Below are positions 1,947 through 62,677 of a stretch of DNA of 64,000 nt, piece after piece. The DNA is taken from positions 83,984 through 147,983 of the forward strand of contig JBAQNH010000002.1 in NCBI GenBank assembly GCA_049303575.1. Reading direction: 5' to 3'. The stretch comes from Microgenomates group bacterium. Its GTDB lineage: Bacteria > Patescibacteriota > Microgenomatia > UBA1400 > MFAQ01. Below the pieces are notes generated by a model. That model was not told the origin of the DNA. It saw nothing but the letters and a program-made list of their open reading frames with translations, and did not search any database. Positions within the stretch are counted from its first letter, which is position 1, and the number at the start of each line of letters is the position of its first letter. The translations under genes were made by a program, and so were the position numbers.

Positions 1947-4301
1947 ATGGCTCAAAAAAGACACTTTATTCAATCAAAGAATTTTTTATCATATCTCGGT
2001 ACTCCTGTCTTTAAAATTGTTCTCTGGTCGATTTTAATTTTGGGGTACGTCTTTGTCTTCTTTTCCAAACTATTCTCTGCTCCTCTTCCCCAAGTCACTT
2101 TTCCGAAAATTTCCTTTCCAAAAATCTATTTTCCCCATATCTCATTTCCCAAAATAATTTTCCCAAAAATTATTCTCCCTCATTTTCCCAAAACTGTTTA
2201 TCCCCAACCAAAAATTGATTTAAACTCCCTTCGTTCATACCTTTTCTTTTCCCTTGGAGTTATTTCACTGGTTTGTTTCATCTACATTGAGTTTTTTTAT
2301 GGACTCCCTAGTCCAAGGATGCTAACCGACTATCCTTCAAAACTTACTACTCAGATCCTAGACAGAAACGGCAAACTTCTTTACAAAATTTACAAAGACG
2401 AAAATCGCACTTTAGTCACTCTTGACTCACTTCCTTCTCACGTAAAAAACGCCTTCCTTGCCGCCGAAGACAAAGACTTCTACCACCACAAGGGTTTCTC
2501 CGTCTCTGGTACACTTCGCGCACTATACAAAAATATTACTAATAACAAAACAGAAGGAGGTTCTACTATTACCCAGCAACTGGTCAAAAACACCCTCCTC
2601 AACAATGAAAAAACTCTTACCAGAAAGATCAAAGAGCTTATTCTTGCCGTCGAGGTCGAGTATACCTACAACAAAGATAAAATTTTTGAGATGTACCTCA
2701 ACCAGGTCGGTTTTGGTGGACCAGCTTATGGTATCCAAGAAGCCGCCAGACAATATTTCAATATTGATGCCAAAAATCTAAATCTTTCGCAAGCTGCTTT
2801 TCTGGCCGGACTCCCTCAAGCTCCCAGTAAATACTCCCCTTTCGGTAATCAACCGGAACTAGCTAAAGAAAGGCAGAAGTTTGTTCTCGATCAAATGCTC
2901 AAGCTGAACATGATTAACAATGCGGATTATCAAAAAGCCGTCGACCAAAAACTTGTTTTTAACTCTGCCAAAATCGAAATTAACGCTCCTCATTTTGTAA
3001 TGTATATCAAAGATATTCTTACTAAAGATCTCGGTGAAAACGTCGTTAACCAGGGAGGGCTTGTCGTCACTACCACTCTGGATCTAGAACTTCAAGAAAA
3101 GGTTCAGCAAATCGTAACTTCTGAAATCAGTAATTTAAAAAAATATCAAGTCAGTAATGGTGCTGCCCTAGTCACCAATCCCAAGACTGGAGAAATTCTG
3201 GCCATGGTTGGTTCCAAAGACTATTTCAATCTTAACGAAGATGGCCAAGTCAACCTAACCTTAGCCTTACGCCAACCAGGAAGTTCAATTAAACCGCTTA
3301 ACTACGCCTTAGCTTTTGAAAATGGTTATGGCCCTGGAAACGTTATTGAAGACAAGCCTATTTCTTTCAATCTTCCTGGGCAAGAACCGTGGGCTCCCAA
3401 AAACTATGACGGTAAATTTCACGGGTTCGTAACTCTCAGACAAGCTCTTGGTAGCTCCTACAACATTCCTTCAGTTATTCTTCTCTCCAAAAATGGCATC
3501 CAAAACTTAGTTGCCCTGGCCCAAAAAATGGGCATTACTTCCTGGGACGATCCTGGTAGGTTCGGACTTTCCATGGCCCTTGGTAGTCTGGAAGTTAGAA
3601 TGGTCGATCTCGCTACAGCCTACTCAACTTTTGCAAACTCCGGCATAACCACACCCCTAAACTCCATCGTCAAAATTGAAAGGTCCAATGGTGAAAAAAT
3701 CTATCTTTCCACCTGTCCCCAAAAAATGGAGGCTGTCGAGGAAAGCACTTCTGCTCTCGCCAAAGACAATAACTGTTCTCCTCATCAATCAGTTTCCCCC
3801 TCAACCGCCTATCTCATCTCCGACATCCTCGCCGATAACAGCGCTAGAGCTCCAGCCTTTGGAGCAAACTCGGTCATCAACATTAAAAAAACCAAGGTTG
3901 CTGTCAAAACCGGAACCAGTAATGACCTCCGCGATAACTGGACCTTTGGTTACACCGACGACTTTCTCGTTTCCACCTGGGTTGGCAACAACAATAACGC
4001 TCCCATGTCTCGTATTGCTTCGGGTATTACGGGAGCTTCACCTATCTGGGCAAAAATTTTCAACATTATTCTTGAGTCCATTCCTCAAATGACCAAAACG
4101 GACACTGTTGCTCCGACCGGTCTTATAAGAGTCCCCATCTGCACCCTTACCGGCACACTTTCCTGTGAGGGTTGTCCTACTAAATATGAATACTATAAAA
4201 AAGGTACCGAACCAAAAACTACCTGCGACCCAGCCAGAATAAAAGAAATTCTCTACCCCACGCCTTCGTCATCAATTGCCCCCTCTCCTCAAATTCTCTA
4301 A
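1947..4301 (+). CDS. bifunctional class A penicillin-binding protein (transglycosylase/transpeptidase, PBP1A), with an N-terminal FPKI tandem-repeat segment
   Basis: Transglycosylase motifs EDKDFYHHKGFS and TITQQLVKN. Transpeptidase motifs PGSSIKP (SxxK), SYN-like SxN and KTGTSND (KTG). An N-terminal TM helix follows the repeat FPKISFPKIYFPHISFPKIIFPKIILPHFPK. Confidence 0.85.
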   Translation: MAQKRHFIQSKNFLSYLGTPVFKIVLWSILILGYVFVFFSKLFSAPLPQVTFPKISFPKIYFPHISFPKIIFPKIILPHFPKTVYPQPKIDLNSLRSYLFFSLGVISLVCFIYIEFFYGLPSPRMLTDYPSKLTTQILDRNGKLLYKIYKDENRTLVTLDSLPSHVKNAFLAAEDKDFYHHKGFSVSGTLRALYKNITNNKTEGGSTITQQLVKNTLLNNEKTLTRKIKELILAVEVEYTYNKDKIFEMYLNQVGFGGPAYGIQEAARQYFNIDAKNLNLSQAAFLAGLPQAPSKYSPFGNQPELAKERQKFVLDQMLKLNMINNADYQKAVDQKLVFNSAKIEINAPHFVMYIKDILTKDLGENVVNQGGLVVTTTLDLELQEKVQQIVTSEISNLKKYQVSNGAALVTNPKTGEILAMVGSKDYFNLNEDGQVNLTLALRQPGSSIKPLNYALAFENGYGPGNVIEDKPISFNLPGQEPWAPKNYDGKFHGFVTLRQALGSSYNIPSVILLSKNGIQNLVALAQKMGITSWDDPGRFGLSMALGSLEVRMVDLATAYSTFANSGITTPLNSIVKIERSNGEKIYLSTCPQKMEAVEESTSALAKDNNCSPHQSVSPSTAYLISDILADNSARAPAFGANSVINIKKTKVAVKTGTSNDLRDNWTFGYTDDFLVSTWVGNNNNAPMSRIASGITGASPIWAKIFNIILESIPQMTKTDTVAPTGLIRVPICTLTGTLSCEGCPTKYEYYKKGTEPKTTCDPARIKEILYPTPSSSIAPSPQIL
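2095..2195 (+). repeat. in-frame 15-nt tandem repeats (about 6 units) encoding FPKIx pentapeptides in the PBP1A N-terminus
   Basis: TTTCCNAAAATNNNN units are visible in the DNA. Protein reads FPKISFPKIYFPHISFPKIIFPKIILPHFPK. Confidence 0.7.
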
Positions 4302-52833: not shown

Positions 52834-53838
52834 TCATCGTAACTTGGAAATTAGCCTGTAGTTTGAACTCCCAACTACCTTGAAATATCGGATAATCTCA
52901 TCCTTTTTATATAGCCACACTTTATTATTGGACTGATACTTTGGAGAAAAACCTAAAGTAGTTAGTGTTTCGAAGACAAATGTTAATAACGGAGTTGATA
53001 CGTTTGTGAAGTTTATGGTTAGGTACGAGTATTGTTTTCCGTTTATTGTGTATTTATGTTCAAATAGTCCTCCGTCTGTATCAATAAGCCCTCTAAGACA
53101 CATTGTTGAATAATTGATGTCTCCTGTTATCCACTTTGGAACCGTTATTTGAATTTTTGATTTGTTTCCAAAGGAAATACCATTTTTATTCAAGAACTTA
53201 ACGAGATTAACACCGCTATACTTTAACGAAATTGCATTGGCTTTCTTGTATTTATATAGAGATGGGGAATATTTAAATAATTTTTCTGATAGATCCTTGA
53301 CATACTCCATATATTTATTGTCTAAAATTGAATTAAGGGTGATGGTCAGTTGATATTTTGTTAGTCCTCCATCACCTAAAACAATTCCAAACAACTCGGC
53401 TAATTGTTTTGATTCGTTTGGAAAATTAAAAATATTGGGTACATTGCAACCAATTGAACGATAATAATCTGGATTTTCTTTCCTGTTTTTCTGGGACATT
53501 TCTCCTCCTTTTTTTCGCCCAGATTCATTTCCAGGTGGTCCATATAGTTTATTCCTCTTTAGTGTACCAATAGGTCCATTGATTCTTCCACTCCACCATT
53601 CTTCTCTTTCTTCCAATATTGGTGGAAGGGTAATGCCAGAAATTTTGCTAATTTTTTTCATTGCGTCTCTACTTCCTAAAGTCTTTTCGCTAATCCAATA
53701 CCTGAAGCTTCTTCCTGAGATACCAACAAATTTTGATAGACCATCCGAGTTTAGAGTAAGGATAGCCATAACCTTTTTCAAGTATTTGTTTTGTTCTCCT
53801 CGTTTAAATACCAATCTTGTCATAGCTAATCCTAACAA
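52834..53838 (-). CDS. free-standing double-motif LAGLIDADG homing endonuclease with an N-terminal HTH-like region
   Basis: Two LAGLIDADG motifs, LFGIVLGDGGL and LRGLIDTDGGL. Lies 16 nt upstream of tRNA-Ser(GCT) on the same strand. Confidence 0.75.
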   Translation of the reverse strand: MLGLAMTRLVFKRGEQNKYLKKVMAILTLNSDGLSKFVGISGRSFRYWISEKTLGSRDAMKKISKISGITLPPILEEREEWWSGRINGPIGTLKRNKLYGPPGNESGRKKGGEMSQKNRKENPDYYRSIGCNVPNIFNFPNESKQLAELFGIVLGDGGLTKYQLTITLNSILDNKYMEYVKDLSEKLFKYSPSLYKYKKANAISLKYSGVNLVKFLNKNGISFGNKSKIQITVPKWITGDINYSTMCLRGLIDTDGGLFEHKYTINGKQYSYLTINFTNVSTPLLTFVFETLTTLGFSPKYQSNNKVWLYKKDEIIRYFKVVGSSNYRLISKLR

Positions 53839-53987: not shown

Positions 53988-54072
53988 GGAGGGGTCGCAT
54001 AGTGGTCGAGTGCTCCGGTTTACTAAACCGGCGTATCGCAAGATACCGCGGGTTCGAATCCCGCCCCCTCCG
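53988..54072 (+). tRNA. class II (Ser-type) tRNA with an apparent anticodon ACT (unusual A34); possibly a tRNA-Ser variant or pseudogene
   Basis: Acceptor GGAGGGG/CCCCTCC, 3-bp D-stem GCA/TGC as in tRNA-Ser, anticodon stem CCGGT/ACCGG with loop TTACTAA, variable hairpin GTATC-GCAA-GATAC, T-arm GCGGG-TTCGAAT-CCCGC, discriminator G. Confidence 0.55.
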
Positions 54073-54094
54073 CATTTAAATAGTTACACAACTA

Positions 54095-57608: not shown

Positions 57609-58277
57609 TTAGTGAGCTAAAGCTAATCCCCAAACCACCGCCGCTCCTTTTTTCTTGAGCATCTTGGTGCACTCCCTCATATCCGCTCCGCTAGTAAAAA
57701 CATCGTCCACTAGCAATATCTTTTTCCCTTTTAATTTTTTCTTGAAATTTTCTCTAACCTCAAAAACTCCTTTTACGTTTTTTTCTCTCACTTCTCTCTC
57801 CAAAATCAACGACTGTTGTTTTGTTTTTTGTTTTCTTCGCAGCACCTCTTTTACTTCAACCTTCATTTTTTTACCAATCACTCTTGCTATTTCTTCCGCC
57901 TGGTTAAAACCCCTCCAATTCTCACGGTAAAAATGCAAAGGAACGGGCACTAAATAATCAAAGCTCTCCCCAGACTCAAACTGAAAGTTTTTCAAAACAC
58001 TCTTTATTAACTCCTTATTAAAATCAAATTTAATTCCATCAATTATCGACCTCATTTTTACATCCTGATAATCATAAATCACAATTAGTCCATCCATTCC
58101 CATTTTCTTTTTACACTCCCTGTGTGTCCAACCCATCGGCGACTCTCCCCCACACTCTGAACATATTTGATCAGCTATCGAAAGTTCTCGAAAACACTTG
58201 CCACCTAAATCTTTTCCATATTTTCCACATCCATAGCATCTTTTGGGAAACAAAAAATCAAACACCATATCAAACAC
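57609..58277 (-). CDS. comFC: ComF-family protein (phosphoribosyltransferase domain with an N-terminal zinc finger)
   Basis: N-terminal CYGCG..CSECGG. C-terminal PRTase motif KKILLVDDVFTSGADM. Confidence 0.7.
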   Translation of the reverse strand: MFDMVFDFLFPKRCYGCGKYGKDLGGKCFRELSIADQICSECGGESPMGWTHRECKKKMGMDGLIVIYDYQDVKMRSIIDGIKFDFNKELIKSVLKNFQFESGESFDYLVPVPLHFYRENWRGFNQAEEIARVIGKKMKVEVKEVLRRKQKTKQQSLILEREVREKNVKGVFEVRENFKKKLKGKKILLVDDVFTSGADMRECTKMLKKKGAAVVWGLALAH

Positions 58278-58395
58278 AAAACAATTCTAACCGAGTAAAT
58301 ACAAAAAATCTCCCCGTTAGGAGAGATTTTTGTATATTGTGGAGATGGGGCGCCACTTCTTGAACCATTTCTGTTATCCCTCATTTCTTCGGTAA

Positions 58396-58716
58396 ATGAT
58401 AACTGGCACTTGGAAAATGACAACCGTTGGCTTTTGCTTCCACCCGAAAAAAGTGATGGTCTTTCTTCGTATAATAGTTATAGTGACTATAAATACTAAA
58501 CCCAAGCAATTACCCAAACCGAAAGTGGCTGTTCCTGTTCCTCAGCCACGAATTAGGATACTTGATGGCGGATATAACTCGGGCATTTCGGGCTTTGTCA
58601 GCTCCCTTCAATCAGTCAATCTCAATGCTCCCGAAGCCTCACAAAACGCCCACTCAATAAGCGACAACCGAGGTGGAAGAATAGAGCTTGGCTTGGAGAA
58701 TTACATTAAGAAGTGA
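58396..58716 (+). CDS. hypothetical protein (first gene of the putative integrated element)
   Basis: ORF only. Hydrophobic N-terminus. Confidence 0.25.
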   Translation: MITGTWKMTTVGFCFHPKKVMVFLRIIVIVTINTKPKQLPKPKVAVPVPQPRIRILDGGYNSGISGFVSSLQSVNLNAPEASQNAHSISDNRGGRIELGLENYIKK

Positions 58717-58757
58717 GACCTTGAACCTTTCAGGATGAAGGTCAAGTAAGTAATTAA

Positions 58758-59192
58758 ATGGACGAAGAAACCGACATAATTTTCCGAAAAGTGGAGCCTT
58801 TCTTGAAGTGCGGTCTGAGCCTCCACAAAGCCTGTCTACAGGCTCAAATACCCAAAAGCACGGCATATGACCTATACAAGAATAACAAGTCATTCTCGGA
58901 AAGAATAGACACCAGTAGAAATTATTACTCAGTGCTTGTAACTAGCATTGTCACGAAGGAGCTTGAGAGGATAAGCTCAAAGCAAGACCGAGGTAAGAAA
59001 TTACAACCATTGGAAGTCAGGCTCATTCAATGGATAGCCACAAACAGCCGTTCTCTCAAGGGTGAGTATGGCGACGAGCCTGAGAAATTGGATGAAGAGA
59101 TAAAGCAAGACGACACCATTACATTACTTCAAAAAATAATTAACGACTGTTCTCGGAAAGACAAGGATACACTGGAAGAGCAACCCTCTTGA
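58758..59192 (+). CDS. hypothetical protein, possible HTH (terminase-small-subunit-like) N-terminus
   Basis: GLSLHKACLQAQIPKSTAYDLY resembles a helix-turn-helix. Acidic C-terminus. Confidence 0.3.
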   Translation: MDEETDIIFRKVEPFLKCGLSLHKACLQAQIPKSTAYDLYKNNKSFSERIDTSRNYYSVLVTSIVTKELERISSKQDRGKKLQPLEVRLIQWIATNSRSLKGEYGDEPEKLDEEIKQDDTITLLQKIINDCSRKDKDTLEEQPS

Positions 59193-59311
59193 ACGGTATT
59201 TATAATCATTATAAGTTGTCCTCTTTGGGTTGAGTTTCCTTTCTGCTTCAACCATCACATTCCAACTCGGATTAGCCAACTTAATACTTAGGTAAATTAA
59301 CTCCTACAAGG

Positions 59312-59905
59312 CTAATCATTAAGGTGTTGCATAGCGTAGTCTGCTTCTGCCGCTGTAAATTTACCGCCATACTGTGAAACGAGTTGGTCACGAACAGCTG
59401 CTGGTGACAGGTTCATAGTATCTTGGTAAGTTTTTGCCTGTGAGAGAGCATTTGCATTCCAATTTGCTTTTACATTATCTATTGCATATTGTGCTGCTTT
59501 TGGCGAAAATTTCCCGCCATATTGTGAAACAAGTTGGTCATAGACACCCTGCTTAGACAAATGCATTGAGTTGGCATATGTTGTTGCTTGGGCAAGAGCA
59601 GATTTGTATTCCGCTGGCACATTTGTGCTTGGTGCTGTTGGTGCAATCGGAGTGGTTTTTGCGGAAACTGTCACACTGGGAGTTGGTTGAGTAGTATCGG
59701 TATCAGTAGTGACGGTCTCGTTACTCTCGGTTGTTTTACTTCCCTTACCTCCACTTGCAGAACCAATCATACCCAAAATAAATATAGCCAAAATAACCGT
59801 GAGTATCGGATGTCTTGCAAACCAAATCCTTTGGTCTGACTGACAATAAGGACACTTCTTGGCTTTATTATCTATCTCTTTCTGACAAGACTTACATTTT
59901 TTCAT
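59312..59905 (-). CDS. Ltp-family (PF07553-like) surface protein with an N-terminal zinc ribbon and TM anchor; putative superinfection-exclusion protein
   Basis: CKSCQ..CPYC zinc ribbon, one TM helix and a Thr-rich linker. Two tandem repeats: QATTYANSMHLSKQGVYDQLVSQYGGKFSPKAAQYAIDNV and QAKTYQDTMNLSPAAVRDQLVSQYGGKFTAAEADYAMQHL. Confidence 0.55.
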   Translation of the reverse strand: MKKCKSCQKEIDNKAKKCPYCQSDQRIWFARHPILTVILAIFILGMIGSASGGKGSKTTESNETVTTDTDTTQPTPSVTVSAKTTPIAPTAPSTNVPAEYKSALAQATTYANSMHLSKQGVYDQLVSQYGGKFSPKAAQYAIDNVKANWNANALSQAKTYQDTMNLSPAAVRDQLVSQYGGKFTAAEADYAMQHLND

Positions 59906-60019
59906 TATTCTTGTTTGTTAATAATTTTTTAATACTCCTTGTCACCTACCTACTTCAAATTGTAATCCATTCCACAGTCTAAAAACAACAATGCAGTTCG
60001 GGGATGTAAAATCAGGGCA

Positions 60020-61561
60020 ATGGAATACTACGACCTTGATGTCACAAAACTAAAGTATGTCCTCTACCTTCGCAAGTCCACCGACGACGCTCAAAGGCAA
60101 GTCAGGTCTATTGGCGACCAAGAGGCAGAATGCTTTGACCTCCAAAGACGGCTCGGACTAAATATCGTCAAAACCATAAAGGAAACAAAGTCGGCAAAGT
60201 CCCCTAACAAGCGTCCACAATTCCGAGAAATGCTTGATGGAATAAAAATGGGCAAGTATGACGCCATTCTTGCTTGGAACCCCGATAGGTTGGCAAGAAA
60301 TATGCTTGAGGGTGGAGAAATAATTTATTTGGTGGACGAAAACATTATCAAAGACCTAAAGTTCGTTACTCACCCATTCACACCCGACCCAAACGGCAAA
60401 ATGCTTCTCGGGTTGGCTTTTGTCCTCTCCAAGCAATACTCGGATGACCTCTCTCAAAAGATTTCCCGAGGAGTAAAAAGAAGCTTCAGTGAAGGCAAGA
60501 TTGGCACCTACAAACATGGTTACAAGCGTGATGATGAAGGGTTCCAAGTTCCCGACGGAAAGAAGTTTGAGCTCATTAAGGAGGCTTGGGAGCTTAGAGC
60601 CGAAGGTCGTTCCCTTGAAGAAATAGCCTCCATCATAAACGACAAGGGATATGAGAGAAAAATAAAAAGAACGGGAGTAATTATGAAGGCAGACGCCAAA
60701 CTATTGAGTAAGCTTTTCCGAGACCCATTTTATTTTGGAACTTTGATACAAGCGGGTCAAACAATAAACCTTCTCCAATTTGGCTTTATTCCTGCCACCA
60801 CAAAAGAAGTTTACGAACATATCCAGTTGCTCTCATCAAACCGACTCCGACCATTCAATGTCAGGCGAATGACATTCTTCCCTCTTAAGGCAATACTGAG
60901 GTGTTCATTTTGCGGAAAGAATATGGTGGTGGCTCCATCAACAAGCCGAGGAGGAGGAAAGCTTTTGTATTGTCGTTGCGATACCAAAGGATGTCCGAGG
61001 ATAAAGAAATCGCTCCGAATGAAGTTTGTCTTTGATTTTATCTACGACTTTTTGGATAACAATCTAAAAATCACCGAGAAGGAATACCAAAAATATCTTG
61101 ATGAAACCGACGCTCTCAATGTAGAAGCGACAAGTAATACCTACCTTCAAATCCATACTCTTGAGGGACAGGTAAAAGCTATCACCCAAGAAATCAAGGA
61201 AAGCTCACTTGGTCTCGTCAAAATAAACTCCAAATCTCCAGCCTTCAATATAGTAAACGATAGGATTTCAAGCCTAGACAATGAAAAGTCAGGCTTGGAA
61301 GAGAAACTACGAGACCTCAGGAGCACTCTAAAAAGCCCCGAGAGTCAGAGGTTGGGTATGGATGAGTTCTTGAACCTGTGTAAAAATGCGGGTGCTATCG
61401 CAAGAAGTGCCACCGAAGTTCAAAAAGATACAATTTGCCGATATGTTTTCTTGAACCTATCTGTGGATGAGGAAAAAGTAGTGGCATATCAACTAAAAGA
61501 GCCGTTCAACACATTGGTCAAACGGCTCTTTATCCAAGAAGGTGGAGACGGAGGGAATTGA
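60020..61561 (+). mobile_element. large serine recombinase (serine integrase) CDS
   Basis: Resolvase-type catalytic N-terminus (VLYLRKSTDDAQRQ, nucleophilic Ser), recombinase domain, zinc-ribbon (CSFCGKN..CRC) and coiled-coil. The 3' end overlaps the tmRNA 3' end. Confidence 0.85.
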
Positions 61562-61935
61562 ACCCTCGTCTGAAATAATAAATCTACAATTTCTACAAGC
61601 TTAGTTTGCCGTTTTTCCATAAAGCTTCAGGCAAACAAGAACACTTTATGGTCGACTTAGAATAAGTTAGTCTCCAAGCCTAAATCACGCCTTGAAGCAT
61701 TCAATCCGGTGTTTTTTCGCCTTAAAGGTACCCCGGGATCCGATATTCTCTAGAGCGTCTCGAACTCGAGTTTAGGCAAAAGCGTAAACGGGAGCGAAAG
61801 ATTTGGCTTCACTTGAGGTGAAACCAAGTAACTTGTCTTCTTTATTGACAGTTGTATTTTGGTCTTTTTTACTCCTTTTACCAAAGGAGGCTTGCAGTTG
61901 TAAACGTACTAGTCCATCGATTCCGGTCGTCCCCA
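61541..61935 (-). ncRNA. ssrA: tmRNA (ssrA), about 395 nt
   Basis: 5' GGGGACGACCGGAATCGATGG matches the tmRNA 5' consensus (GGGGnuGAuucuGGAUUCGAcGG). Acceptor GGGGACG pairs with 3' CGTCTCC, giving a G3:U wobble, with discriminator A plus CC. T-arm GAGGG-TTCAATT-CCCTC. Candidate tag ORF GCC..TAA encodes AKSFAPVYAFA. smpB lies immediately upstream. Confidence 0.75.
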
Positions 61936-61983: not shown

Positions 61984-62226
61984 TTAGGACCTTAATGTTC
62001 TAAAATACTCAATTTTCTCAGTCAAAGTGACTCCCATCATCTGAGCACGAGACGCAGCCATTACCACACCAGCCAAAAATAAATCAAATTCGTCATCATC
62101 CATCGCGGATACTTTAGCTTTTATGCCTTCTTGCCACTTTTTCAGGCTCATTTTCGGCGTAAAATCCTTACTCCATGAATAATTAACGATGCTGGCAGGC
62201 ATTACTTTACTCCAAAATAGGTCCAT
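61984..62226 (-). CDS. small hypothetical protein between smpB and ssrA
   Basis: ORF of 80 aa. No motif. Confidence 0.3.
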   Translation of the reverse strand: MDLFWSKVMPASIVNYSWSKDFTPKMSLKKWQEGIKAKVSAMDDDEFDLFLAGVVMAASRAQMMGVTLTEKIEYFRTLRS

Positions 62227-62236
62227 TTTTACCCTT

Positions 62237-62677
62237 TCAGTTAGTTAGTTTTAAACGTCTCGCAAGACCCAACTGACTTTCACGCTTTTTGAGTATCTCT
62301 CTTTTTTCAAACTTCTTCTTGCCTCGGACTAAAGCGATCTTCACCTTCACGAGACTGCCCTTATTATACAGCGAGATAGGCACGACTGTCAACCCTGCCG
62401 ATCTCATTTTGCTCTGAATCTCGATGATTTCTTTCCTGTGCAGCAACAATTTTCTTCGTTTGTCGGGATCATATTCCTCCGCACTGTCATGCCTGTACTT
62501 GGGAATGCTCAGTCCCAGCACATACGCCCCGTCATTCTCAAAAATGACTCTTGCTCCCAACATCGTTGCTCCTCCGTCACGAACACTTTTCACCTCAGCC
62601 CCACTCAATACAATACCGGACTCAAAATCCTCAATAATCTCATAATCAAATCTGGCTTTTTTATTCTCCACGATCAT
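62237..62677 (-). CDS. smpB: SsrA-binding protein SmpB
   Basis: ARFDYEI..GIVL.GAEVKS..KRRKLLLHRKEI..KGSLVKVKIALVRGKK are canonical SmpB motifs. Confidence 0.9.
   Translation of the reverse strand: MIVENKKARFDYEIIEDFESGIVLSGAEVKSVRDGGATMLGARVIFENDGAYVLGLSIPKYRHDSAEEYDPDKRRKLLLHRKEIIEIQSKMRSAGLTVVPISLYNKGSLVKVKIALVRGKKKFEKREILKKRESQLGLARRLKLTN

Follow-up and report, generated by a model that had tools for sequence, protein, structure and literature searches.

In order to describe the locus we start from ssrA, a one-piece tmRNA gene at 61541..61934(-) of the window, by which we mean the whole stretch of 64,000 nucleotides that was analysed. The host is a member of Candidatus Collierbacteria (Patescibacteria). 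The first-pass annotation had proposed an unannotated tmRNA on the minus strand, adjoining smpB, and both points were borne out. ARAGORN called a tmRNA at 61541..61934(-), and the Rfam model RF00023 matched 61540..61934(-) over its full length (model positions 1-374) with 116 bits, above the curated gathering score of 47 (E 1.2e-44). smpB (Pfam SmpB, 3e-45) is located at 62237..62677(-), with a conserved ORF of 80 aa between the two genes, and ssrA itself is conserved in ~20 Collierbacteria loci. The tRNA-Ala-like domain is present as had been described, comprising the 7-bp acceptor (GGGGACG/CGTCTCC) with its G3:U pair, the T-arm GAGGG-TTCAATT-CCCTC, and the discriminator A followed by CC. The sequence given for the 5' end, GGGGACGACCGGAATCGATGG, was likewise right, but it starts at 61934, and the end coordinate of 61935 was one base too far. 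In the ~20 Collierbacteria relatives, the T-arm shows compensatory changes, from GAGGG/CCCTC to GAGAG/CTCTC and GGGAG/CTCCC. Pseudoknot 1 (CUCC/GGAG and UUUGGU/ACCAAA), read from the sequence at 61858..61889(-) and corresponding to gene positions 46-77, has paired segments that are invariant in the ~20 Collierbacteria tmRNAs, and covariation therefore speaks neither for nor against it. A cluster of eight common restriction sites within 200 bp of ssrA sequence raised the question of vector contamination (a polylinker). This was rejected, as ~20 independent Collierbacteria tmRNAs conserve GGATCCCGGG, the AAGCTT sites and ATCGAT as structural segments. The tmRNA gene itself is ordinary; its annotation closes a gap and supplies the Collierbacteria tag sequence.

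The reading frame of the proteolysis tag extends from the resume codon GUC to UAA at 61772..61849(-), gene positions 86-163 in the ARAGORN prediction, and encodes VNKEDKLLGFTSSEAKSFAPVYAFA*. The resulting tag, (A)VNKEDKLLGFTSSEAKSFAPVYAFA, has 25 residues and ends in YAFA. The GUC at gene position 86 is located 8 nt past pseudoknot 1, and the RF00023 alignment sets the resume codon of the model on the same triplet. Among the ~20 Collierbacteria relatives, the N-terminal part of the tag (VNKEDKLLG) is conserved, length differences in the frame amount to whole codons, and synonymous changes are present. The resume codon could be one codon off, AAU instead of GUC. The first-pass annotation had read the tag as AKSFAPVYAFA; the underlying string GCC AAA ... 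GCC TAA is present in the sequence, but it encodes merely the C-terminal 11 residues, and ARAGORN put the resume codon elsewhere, at the GUC 14 codons earlier, a placement that the annotation itself had named as counting against its tag start. A short tag AKSFAPVYAFA with GCC at 61804..61806 as the resume codon would have a canonical length, and no kind of resume codon is commoner than GCC (Ala). This GCC is, however, 50 nt from pseudoknot 1 as against 8 nt for the GUC, both ARAGORN and the Rfam alignment chose the GUC, and the 14 upstream codons are conserved as protein across the clade, with the synonymous changes and whole-codon length differences mentioned above. The short tag is thus highly improbable.

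Adjoining the 3' end of ssrA, we identified an integrative element at 58339..61548 (3,203 bp core to core) with the 7-bp core GTGGAGA on both flanks. It contains four ORFs, and no conjugation, replication or virion genes were found in it. The largest ORF is the body of a large serine recombinase gene (60020..61561(+)), which as integrated encodes 513 aa and stops with TGA at 61559-61561. The cargo is an Ltp-type lipoprotein of the superinfection-exclusion family at 59312..59905(-) (Pfam Lipoprotein_Ltp 1e-41; PHROG 4980 8e-55). The helix-turn-helix-like protein orf144 is encoded at 58758..59192(+) (PHROG 4102 E 0.004; Pfam Sf6_terminase 0.009); it has homologues in the loci L020 (82% identical) and L070 (44% identical), shows weak similarity to terminase small subunits, and is a candidate regulator or directionality factor. 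The remaining small ORF, at 58396..58716(+), has a conserved C-terminal half (58552..58716, ...SPEASQNAHSISDNRGGRIEL...) and a doubtful N-terminal part. This small conserved protein of the element was located by tblastn ahead of the recombinase gene in 20 loci; it has no Pfam or PHROG match and is another candidate directionality factor.

The catalytic domain of the recombinase was identified with the Pfam Resolvase model (PF00239) at 3e-20, and R18, S20, D89, R90, and R93 are invariant in a 31-sequence family alignment, S20 and R18 being catalytic. The Recombinase domain (PF07508) scores 21.4 bits against a cut-off of 21.1, and the zinc ribbon scores 21 bits, under the curated cut-off of 25.3, with 28.6 bits in the homologue P0091. 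A PDB sequence search returned isolated catalytic domains only. The predicted fold of the homologue P0063, with strands at 293-333 and long helices at 353-435, has as its best matches full-length serine integrase-att complexes (E down to 1e-19).

The overlap between the recombinase CDS (60020..61561) and ssrA, put at roughly 20 nt in the first-pass annotation, exists and extends over exactly 21 nt. It had been taken as what the insertion of an integrative element into the end of ssrA is expected to produce, a proposal that is now confirmed by empty sites and by junctions mapped at base level. In the empty sites L001 and L002, whose SmpB is 99% identical, the gene order is smpB, orf80, ssrA, ~60 bp, and comF, whereas 3.2 kb separate ssrA from comF in the window. 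The comF-like gene (57609..58277(-); Pfam DZR_2 and Pribosyltran) directly follows ssrA in element-free genomes, as seen from the synteny in L001-L010. Compared with L001 and L002, the junctions were resolved to a single base, with the attL core GTGGAGA at 61542..61548 and the attR core GTGGAGA at 58339..58345. The attL core is the complement of TCTCCAC in ssrA, i.e. five acceptor bases, the discriminator A, and then C. ssrA is unaltered up to the discriminator in the occupied site and, as the 7-bp core spans the discriminator, the mature tmRNA sequence is unchanged and the gene intact after integration.

Presence and absence of the element share identical end points, the site being empty in L001 and L002 and occupied in the window and in L020. 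The latter is a distant member of the Collierbacteria (SmpB 68% identical) with the same element at the same target; it has the same attR junction, in the order terminator, GTGGAGA, and element left end, and over 844 bp the two copies are 85% identical in nucleotide sequence. The attL junction is the same as in the window in L082 (partial recombinase, 98% identical) and in L113 (94%). L113 encodes the closest homologue, but its ssrA is interrupted by an N-gap that is an artefact of scaffolding, and the contig was therefore used for the attL junction alone. A displaced second copy of the ssrA 3' end was not found in the window, even at 3 mismatches, because the core is just 7 bp, and a general repeat search of the window gave nothing relevant. 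For the element of the window itself, neither an excised circle nor an attP junction was seen; its predicted circular junction is ...CCAAGAAGGTGGAGATGGGGCGCC..., the reconstructed attP junction is ...GGCTCTTTATCCAAGAAGGTGGAGATGGGGCGCCACTTCTTGAACC..., and the reconstructed attB is ...TTTTGTATATTGTGGAGACGGAGGGAATTGAACC.... A resident chromosomal recombinase gene that overlaps ssrA tail to tail, with no mobile element, would be in keeping with the compact genomes of Patescibacteria, in which convergent overlaps occur, with the GC content of the element (42.1%, near the 41.1% of the window) and with the missing second copy of the ssrA 3' end, but this reading has virtually no probability left. The empty sites L001 and L002 have already refuted it, since the 3.2 kb are missing entirely from these closest relatives, the junctions are precise and the 7-bp core is duplicated, and it is opposed further by the same element at the same target in the distant host L020 and by recombinase ORFs that run into different tRNA genes in at least 62/80 loci.

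The native ssrA terminator hairpin, located directly 3' of ssrA in L001 and L002, was found by the terminator scan at 58304..58331(-) in the window, displaced 3.2 kb by the insertion. Ten nucleotides after the ssrA end, the element contributes a 15-bp perfect hairpin (61496..61531(-); fold energy -23.6 kcal/mol, z = -4.4), which is antisense to the recombinase codons KEPFNTLVKRLF. This hairpin may be a substitute ssrA terminator or a processing signal; it was not called by the terminator scan owing to its weak U-tract.

Reconstruction of the circular form showed that the recombinase gene is split by its own integration. The detached 3' end, a 53-codon tail (GDGAPLLEPF...SDYKY*), is located at 58339..58499(+), and body and tail are contiguous in the excised circle only, which would encode 560 aa. 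The attP site is located inside the recombinase gene, ~50 codons before its stop, and integration consequently detaches a conserved tail of 47-55 codons. The last 13 nt of the ORF as integrated are host ssrA DNA read in antisense, with the stop TGA inside the T-loop motif. At 18/18 mapped P' sites the recombinase frame is open for 47-55 codons in the same phase, and the tail at these mapped element ends is conserved, ending YEY-like (n=18). Continuous recombinase ORFs in L048 and L109 carry the tail, which confirms the split gene. Between the tail of the window and that of L020 there are seven synonymous and one nonsynonymous codon changes, with 7/8 differences at third codon positions, and the substitution pattern indicates that tail and recombinase are under purifying selection. 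The first-pass annotation had missed that the 20 nt in common belong to the host and that a truncated recombinase ORF merely reads through them, that the true 3' end of the recombinase gene is 3.2 kb away, and that the arrangement of an ORF running into tDNA is common to the whole recombinase family.

Among the closest homologues, 118/120 end in tDNA-antisense peptides and 2/120 have the full tail. With 118/120 copies truncated, yet the tail intact and selected, we argue that the full-length form matters in some state. The single contig L112 comprises attR, attL with a 510-aa recombinase in tRNA-Pro, and an internal P|P' junction whose recombinase is full-length (554 aa); in this tandem array, the one examined, the inner recombinase regains its tail from the neighbour. 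The attP-configured loci that were examined in detail (L048 and L112) are tandem arrays. A search for circular contigs found no terminal overlaps among 31 short contigs. In the AlphaFold prediction, the tail has a pLDDT below 50, which is due to its presence in only 2/42 aligned sequences. Without its tail, the integrated recombinase probably has an altered or lower activity, which would stabilise the integrated state. The tail could also be dispensable, and the split would then be without regulatory meaning. As a whole, the locus is very probably best explained by a tmRNA gene, an element inserted at its end, and a recombinase gene split in the process.

The recombinase has >1,000 homologues, which at E<=1e-30 form 544 clusters when clustered at 50% identity. 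In 56/80 metagenomic loci the recombinase ORF ends inside, or <=80 nt from, a convergent tDNA, and six further loci with the B' signature bring the number to at least 62/80. The targets are the 3' ends of tRNA-Pro, tRNA-Leu, tRNA-Val, and tmRNA genes, with a core of 4-7 bp at the discriminator. The elements are small (2.6-6.3 kb) and also form tandem arrays. In 18 mapped relatives the layout is tail, small protein, helix-turn-helix protein, cargo, and recombinase, and the cargo of the family is varied, including an Erm/KsgA-type methyltransferase, a toxin-antitoxin pair, Schlafen-like proteins, and Ltp proteins. This large recombinase family, with the ends of tRNA and tmRNA genes as its targets, has apparently not been described before.

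A viral origin of the family was rejected, as it is absent from IMG/VR and a tblastn search of a phage database gave distant integrases only, the nearest ~24% identical. The same result weighs against the element being a decayed prophage of which an integrase, a superinfection-exclusion gene, and a terminase-like fragment are left. Ltp-type lipoproteins are typical prophage genes (the PHROG 4980 match of the cargo), and the weak likeness of orf144 to terminase small subunits would also fit such a remnant. However, the 18 mapped relatives all fall within 2.6-6.3 kb, have intact ends and share one layout, the tail and the recombinase are under purifying selection, and the L020 copy has the same left end; we consider a prophage remnant unlikely.

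The complement of the ssrA T-loop, TTGAAC, is located in the host arm B' at 61558..61563(+), and 15 bp separate it from the discriminator T (61543). The same hexamer is found in the element arm P' at 58360..58365(+), 20 bp from the discriminator-equivalent T (58340), so that it is 5 bp closer in the tDNA arm than in the element arm. In an offset test across the family, TTGAAC/TCGAAC gave 18 matches at offset 20, compared with 0-1 at each of 27 other offsets (8 to 35); since the search for P' sites required the TTGAAC motif, the base identities are partly circular. A 5-bp shift of a motif between attB and attP has been described for the LI integrase (PMC3783163), and the offset seen in the present sequences matches this known rule of large serine integrases. 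The offset test superseded an exact k-mer search for element ends, in which 8-mers were noise and only the matches to the 9-mer TACTAGTCG were real. By sequence inspection, no matching motif was found in the P and B arms, and the site is asymmetric. An attP centre 5 nt inside the acceptor, hinted at by inverted-repeat symmetry, was rejected because tRNA-Pro cores do not reach that far.

The element may be real and the tail and the TTGAAC at +20 nevertheless have no role in recognition or directionality, the motif being merely coding and the 513-aa protein fully active. In P', TTGAAC also encodes the [L/I]-E-x ([L/I]-E-[L/P]) of the conserved tail, and its fixed position could be due to coding constraint alone; the partly circular base identities and the missing motif in the P and B arms also favour this reading. 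On the other hand, the distance of the hexamer in the tDNA arm is shorter by exactly 5 bp, in agreement with the established spacing rule of serine integrases, and the tail is intact and under selection despite truncation of 118/120 database copies. On balance, we regard the absence of any such role as rather unlikely, though by no means far-fetched.

As a tentative reading, we propose that the family parallels, in bacteria and with a serine-type enzyme, the 'suicidal' integrases of archaea; the recombinase would be full-length only in the circle or in tandem arrays, and the T-loop would be the motif of the zinc ribbon. Whatever the merit of this reading, the 3.2-kb element has inserted at the last bases of a functional one-piece tmRNA gene; in doing so, the recombinase would pair attP with an attB in which the tDNA acceptor and T-arm form one half-site. 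The zinc ribbon would read the near-universal T-loop GTTCAA/GTTCGA (TTGAAC/TCGAAC on the strand read here), a motif whose position in attP is shifted outwards by 5 bp, as is known from characterised serine integrases, and the predicted 2-bp crossover at the discriminator would be GT, or T followed by G or C. Integration leaves a body of 513 aa, whose frame continues for a few codons on the antisense strand of ssrA until the T-loop TGA ends it, and the conserved 53-codon tail is moved to the opposite end of the element. If the zinc ribbon does read the T-loop, this would let the family hop between tRNA species and tmRNA by a change in acceptor-stem specificity alone. Canonical serine integrases avoid attL-like sites; the tandem arrays imply recombination into such sites, against this canonical behaviour.

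The closest precedent is the ssrA islands of Dehalococcoides with the serine recombinase DsiB (McMurdie et al. 2011; PMC3146451). Like the window, these islands have a large serine recombinase (~540 aa) adjoining attL at the ssrA 3' end, with an ORF that crosses attL into ssrA (the ORF of the window ends at 61561), and like the present family they occur in tandem. Their authors speculated that dsiB is perhaps complete only on the circle or beside another island (PMC3146451). The DsiB islands differ in having a 20-bp direct repeat and insertion in the T-loop, compared with a 4-7 bp core at the discriminator here, and in a six-gene module (DsiB, the small recombinase DsiA, RecF-like, ParB-like, and Mom-like with an embedded tRNA) that is missing here. 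Unlike them, the elements described here are of 2.6-6.3 kb and have tRNA-Pro and other tRNA genes as main targets. A conserved detached tail is demonstrated for the present family; the comparison with DsiB is by its published description.

The domain order of catalytic domain, recombinase domain, and zinc ribbon with an inserted coiled coil is shared with the integrases of LI/A118, PhiC31, Bxb1, and SPbeta. Characterised serine integrases also have a short core and a half-site motif whose distance from the centre is 5 bp greater in attP than in attB, but they are only 13-15% identical to the family, which differs from them by an extra C-terminal module and tail, by an attP inside the integrase ORF, and by targeting tRNA/tmRNA gene ends instead of protein-coding or intergenic sites; in addition, the elements are not phages. 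With the SSV-type 'suicidal' integrases, the element of the window shares an att site within the integrase gene, which is fragmented by integration. Such self-disrupting integrases were called exclusively archaeal in a review (PMC8371274). The SSV-type enzymes are tyrosine recombinases of archaeal viruses and plasmids, whereas a bacterial serine recombinase (Patescibacteria) is involved here, and what it loses is limited to the last ~10% of its sequence.

The tyrosine-integrase islands found by Islander/TIGER (PMC4383910) have in common with the present elements the tDNA 3' target, restoration of the gene by element sequence, an integrase gene adjoining the tDNA, and tandem arrays, but their enzymes belong to a different family from the recombinase of the window. 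The repeat of 4-7 bp found here is too short to give a displaced tDNA fragment of the kind that Islander seeks. The tycheposons of marine cyanobacteria (bioRxiv 10.1101/2020.12.28.424599) are likewise modular cargo elements at tRNA-Pro, other tRNA, and tmRNA genes in streamlined genomes without common gene-transfer mechanisms, and a minority have a large serine recombinase. They differ in that 910/937 have tyrosine recombinases and many have replication genes; their serine recombinases were compared by description only.

According to the reference literature on genomic islands, tRNA genes are not among the known targets of serine integrases. The present family both targets tRNA genes and disrupts itself, in bacteria with tiny genomes and poorly known routes of gene exchange, and its elements may be one of the main means by which accessory genes travel in Patescibacteria. 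With the tRNA T-arm as part of its attB, such a compact serine integrase is also a possible tool for genome engineering, as conserved tRNA T-arm sites are present in every genome. A neighbour-joining tree of the recombinases compared with their targets was star-like and unsupported; at most it hints at more than one origin of tmRNA targeting.

ARAGORN placed a one-piece tmRNA gene (ssrA) on the minus strand at 61541..61934, and RF00023 matched 61540..61934(-) with the whole model covered (116 bits vs a gathering score of 47, E = 1.2e-44; Rfam). Both agree with the tmRNA proposed in the first-pass annotation, except that its end at 61935 was one base too far. Every sequence feature quoted there is present on the minus strand, with the acceptor GGGGACG/CGTCTCC and its G3:U pair, the T-arm GAGGG-TTCAATT-CCCTC and discriminator A. 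A genome scan for smpB relatives gave 30 loci and placed the host in Candidatus Collierbacteria. Comparison of Collierbacteria tmRNAs revealed compensatory changes in the T-arm and other helices, and pseudoknot 1 was invariant. The tmRNA itself is ordinary. The predicted neighbouring smpB was found at 62237..62677(-) (Pfam, 3e-45), separated from ssrA by one 80-aa ORF (61984..62226, minus strand) that is conserved from L001 to L023 of these loci (57-99% identity), has no match in Pfam or PHROG and may be a partner specific to this lineage in the smpB-ssrA locus. A cluster of eight common restriction sites, the densest in the window, falls within 200 bp inside ssrA (61597..61770): XhoI, XbaI, BamHI, SmaI, KpnI, SalI and two HindIII. 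It resembles a polylinker, a reading that was rejected; the main sites coincide with structural segments that are conserved in tmRNAs of the clade, and the cluster is thus natural.

The tag had been read as AKSFAPVYAFA, starting at a GCC codon. ARAGORN gave VNKEDKLLGFTSSEAKSFAPVYAFA instead, with a GUC resume codon that is also the one in the RF00023 alignment. This GUC lies 8 nt past pseudoknot 1 (CUCC/GGAG and UUUGGU/ACCAAA), compared with 50 nt for the GCC. The tag start VNKEDK[LI]LG recurs in about 20 of the 30 smpB-relative loci, and codons upstream of AKSF carry synonymous changes among about 20 Collierbacteria loci. Tags of 25, 26 or 32 residues were seen among about 20 Collierbacteria tmRNAs, and the length differences are therefore all whole codons. 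Taken together, these observations support the long tag, the start of which is possibly off by one codon.

In two loci with 99% identical SmpB (L001 and L002), the gene order is orf422, smpB, orf80, ssrA, ~60 bp, comF, hemerythrin and HAD; in the window, 3.2 kb of additional sequence separates ssrA from comF. The alignment of the window to these empty sites breaks at single-base resolution: the empty site reads ...CCGTCTCCAC/AATATAC..., the junction at the ssrA end (attL) ...CCGTCTCCAC/CTTCTTGG... and the far junction (attR) ...CCCCATCTCCAC/AATATAC.... Two plus-strand copies of the core GTGGAGA, at 58339-58345 and 61542-61548, lie 3,203 bp apart core to core. The insertion leaves the mature tmRNA sequence unaltered as far as the discriminator, the native ssrA terminator is displaced to 58304..58331, and a 15-bp hairpin supplied by the element lies 10 nt beyond the new ssrA end. 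L020, a Collierbacteria locus with only 68% SmpB identity, comes from a subclade in which ssrA is inverted relative to smpB. It shows the order terminator, GTGGAGA, element left end, the nucleotide sequence being 85% identical across 844 bp. A distantly related host thus carries the same element, inserted at the same target. The empty sites, the base-level junctions and this shared target bear out the suggestion that an integrative element had inserted at the ssrA 3' end. The same attL junction occurs in L082 and L113, which have near-identical recombinases. Two other loci have the inverted ssrA (L023, 10800..11000; L021, 10824..10993); in L023, a duplicated terminator and a 21-nt ssrA 3' fragment lying ~150 bp away from the true end of the gene may be the scar of an earlier integration or excision. 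In L113, the contig of the closest recombinase homologue, an N run and a second copy of GACGAGGGT within the T-arm of ssrA (2037..2150, 0.75x coverage) are a scaffolding artefact, because of which ARAGORN missed ssrA.

The element encodes a large serine recombinase of 513 aa (60020..61561, plus strand; Pfam Resolvase 3e-20, Recombinase 21.4 bits, zinc ribbon 21 bits), and the overlap of this ORF with ssrA noted earlier amounts to its last 21 nt. Besides this gene it carries orf144, which is helix-turn-helix-like, a small conserved ORF and a gene for an Ltp-type lipoprotein that matches PHROG 'superinfection exclusion' (8e-55). Cargo in six related elements (L048, L058, L070, L040, L094 and L109) includes Erm/KsgA-type rRNA adenine methyltransferases, a PEP-utiliser mobile-domain protein, a RibD_C reductase, a Schlafen/AlbA_2 protein, an HD-domain protein, DUF4238, and a PIN toxin with antitoxin and small resolvase. 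Cargo differs between the window and L113 despite nearly identical recombinases.

Homologues of the recombinase number more than 1,000, and an exhaustive search with a full-length family member gave 544 clusters at 50% identity (E ≤ 1e-30). A metagenome scan returned 80 loci, in 56 of which the end of the recombinase ORF falls in a convergent tDNA or no more than 80 nt from one: 48 tRNA-Pro, two tRNA-Leu(GAG), one tRNA-Val and five tmRNA genes (one cut by the contig end). Six further loci of the 80 show the same junction signature. A G stands beside the discriminator at 56 of 57 junctions (the 56 loci and the window), so that the tDNA strand reads A-C. In a crude tree, tmRNA-targeting members fall at no fewer than three positions among those targeting tRNA-Pro. 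The C-terminal peptides of more distant members are antisense translations of acceptor/T-arm DNA in various frames. IMG/VR contained no member of the family, and the closest phage integrases share ~24% identity with it. The model of the homologue P0063 is built like a serine integrase, with a long coiled coil plus an additional module at the C-terminus, its tail being poorly modelled; the best fold matches were full-length serine integrase-att complexes (E 1e-19 to 1e-10, 13-15% identity).

In the tDNA arm, the T-loop complement (TTGAAC or TCGAAC) begins 15 bp from the discriminator. A search upstream of each recombinase gene, covering 166 kb, for the junction 4-mer followed by either motif gave 18 matches at offset 20 and none or one at each of 27 other offsets tested. 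This mapped the element left ends (sizes 2,594-6,333 bp) and shows that the motif lies 5 bp more distal in the element arm than in the tDNA arm. For the LI integrase, the zinc-ribbon motif spans positions 16-24 of attP and 11-19 of attB (PMC3783163). At attR junctions where the left flank is not a recombinase-gene remnant, the attL/attR overlap is as short as GTCG at tRNA-Pro elements and GTGGAGA in the window; from these overlaps we infer that the crossover falls at the discriminator.

At all 18 mapped left ends the recombinase frame is open in the same phase for 47-55 codons, encoding a conserved tail, xRxGAxx[LI]ExL...W...YNxxYEY*. In a reconstructed circle, the excised-form ORF of the window recombinase would run across attP for 560 aa, and the tail is present in continuous ORFs of L048 (554 aa) and L109 (560 aa, tmRNA-type core). 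Each of the three junction types occurs on the single contig L112: attR (5117), an internal junction (9521) restoring a 554-aa recombinase, and attL (13107) in tRNA-Pro(CGG) with a 510-aa recombinase. Two of the 120 closest database homologues are full length, the other 118 being truncated. Between the window and L020, the tail has seven synonymous and one nonsynonymous codon changes, and seven of the eight differences fall in the third codon position. The truncated window recombinase stops at a TGA inside the T-loop motif. Since the TTGAAC of the element arm also encodes part of the tail, coding constraint and DNA recognition are inseparable here.

The element is thus a tDNA-targeting serine integrase element with attP inside its own gene, a variation on a known theme. 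Its closest precedent is the Dehalococcoides ssrA islands, whose serine recombinase gene dsiB always overlaps attL and has its stop outside the island (PMC3146451); these islands have a different repeat length, insertion point, gene module and size. Tycheposons, unlike the present element with its serine recombinase, are mostly tyrosine-recombinase elements (bioRxiv 10.1101/2020.12.28.424599). According to the Islander paper, tRNA genes are not known as serine-integrase targets (PMC4383910), and a review gives self-disrupting integrases as exclusively archaeal (PMC8371274). The recombinase family is large and appears undescribed; no description was found in the literature searched, and one may exist beyond the searchable library.

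Elsewhere in the window, a tRNA-Ser(ACU) (53988..54073, plus strand) adjoins tRNA-Ser(UGA), a pair kept in seven other Collierbacteria loci even though there is a tRNA-Ser(GCU) as well. In bacteria it is unusual to find A34 in tRNAs other than tRNA-Arg(ACG). Between tRNA-Ser(GCU) and tRNA-Ser(UGA) lies a 334-aa ORF with LAGLIDADG-like motifs (52834..53838, minus strand), apparently a free-standing homing-endonuclease gene. In L001 the two tRNA genes are only 65 bp apart, and the ORF is therefore a second strain-specific insertion in the window; its homologue in L087 is 33% identical.
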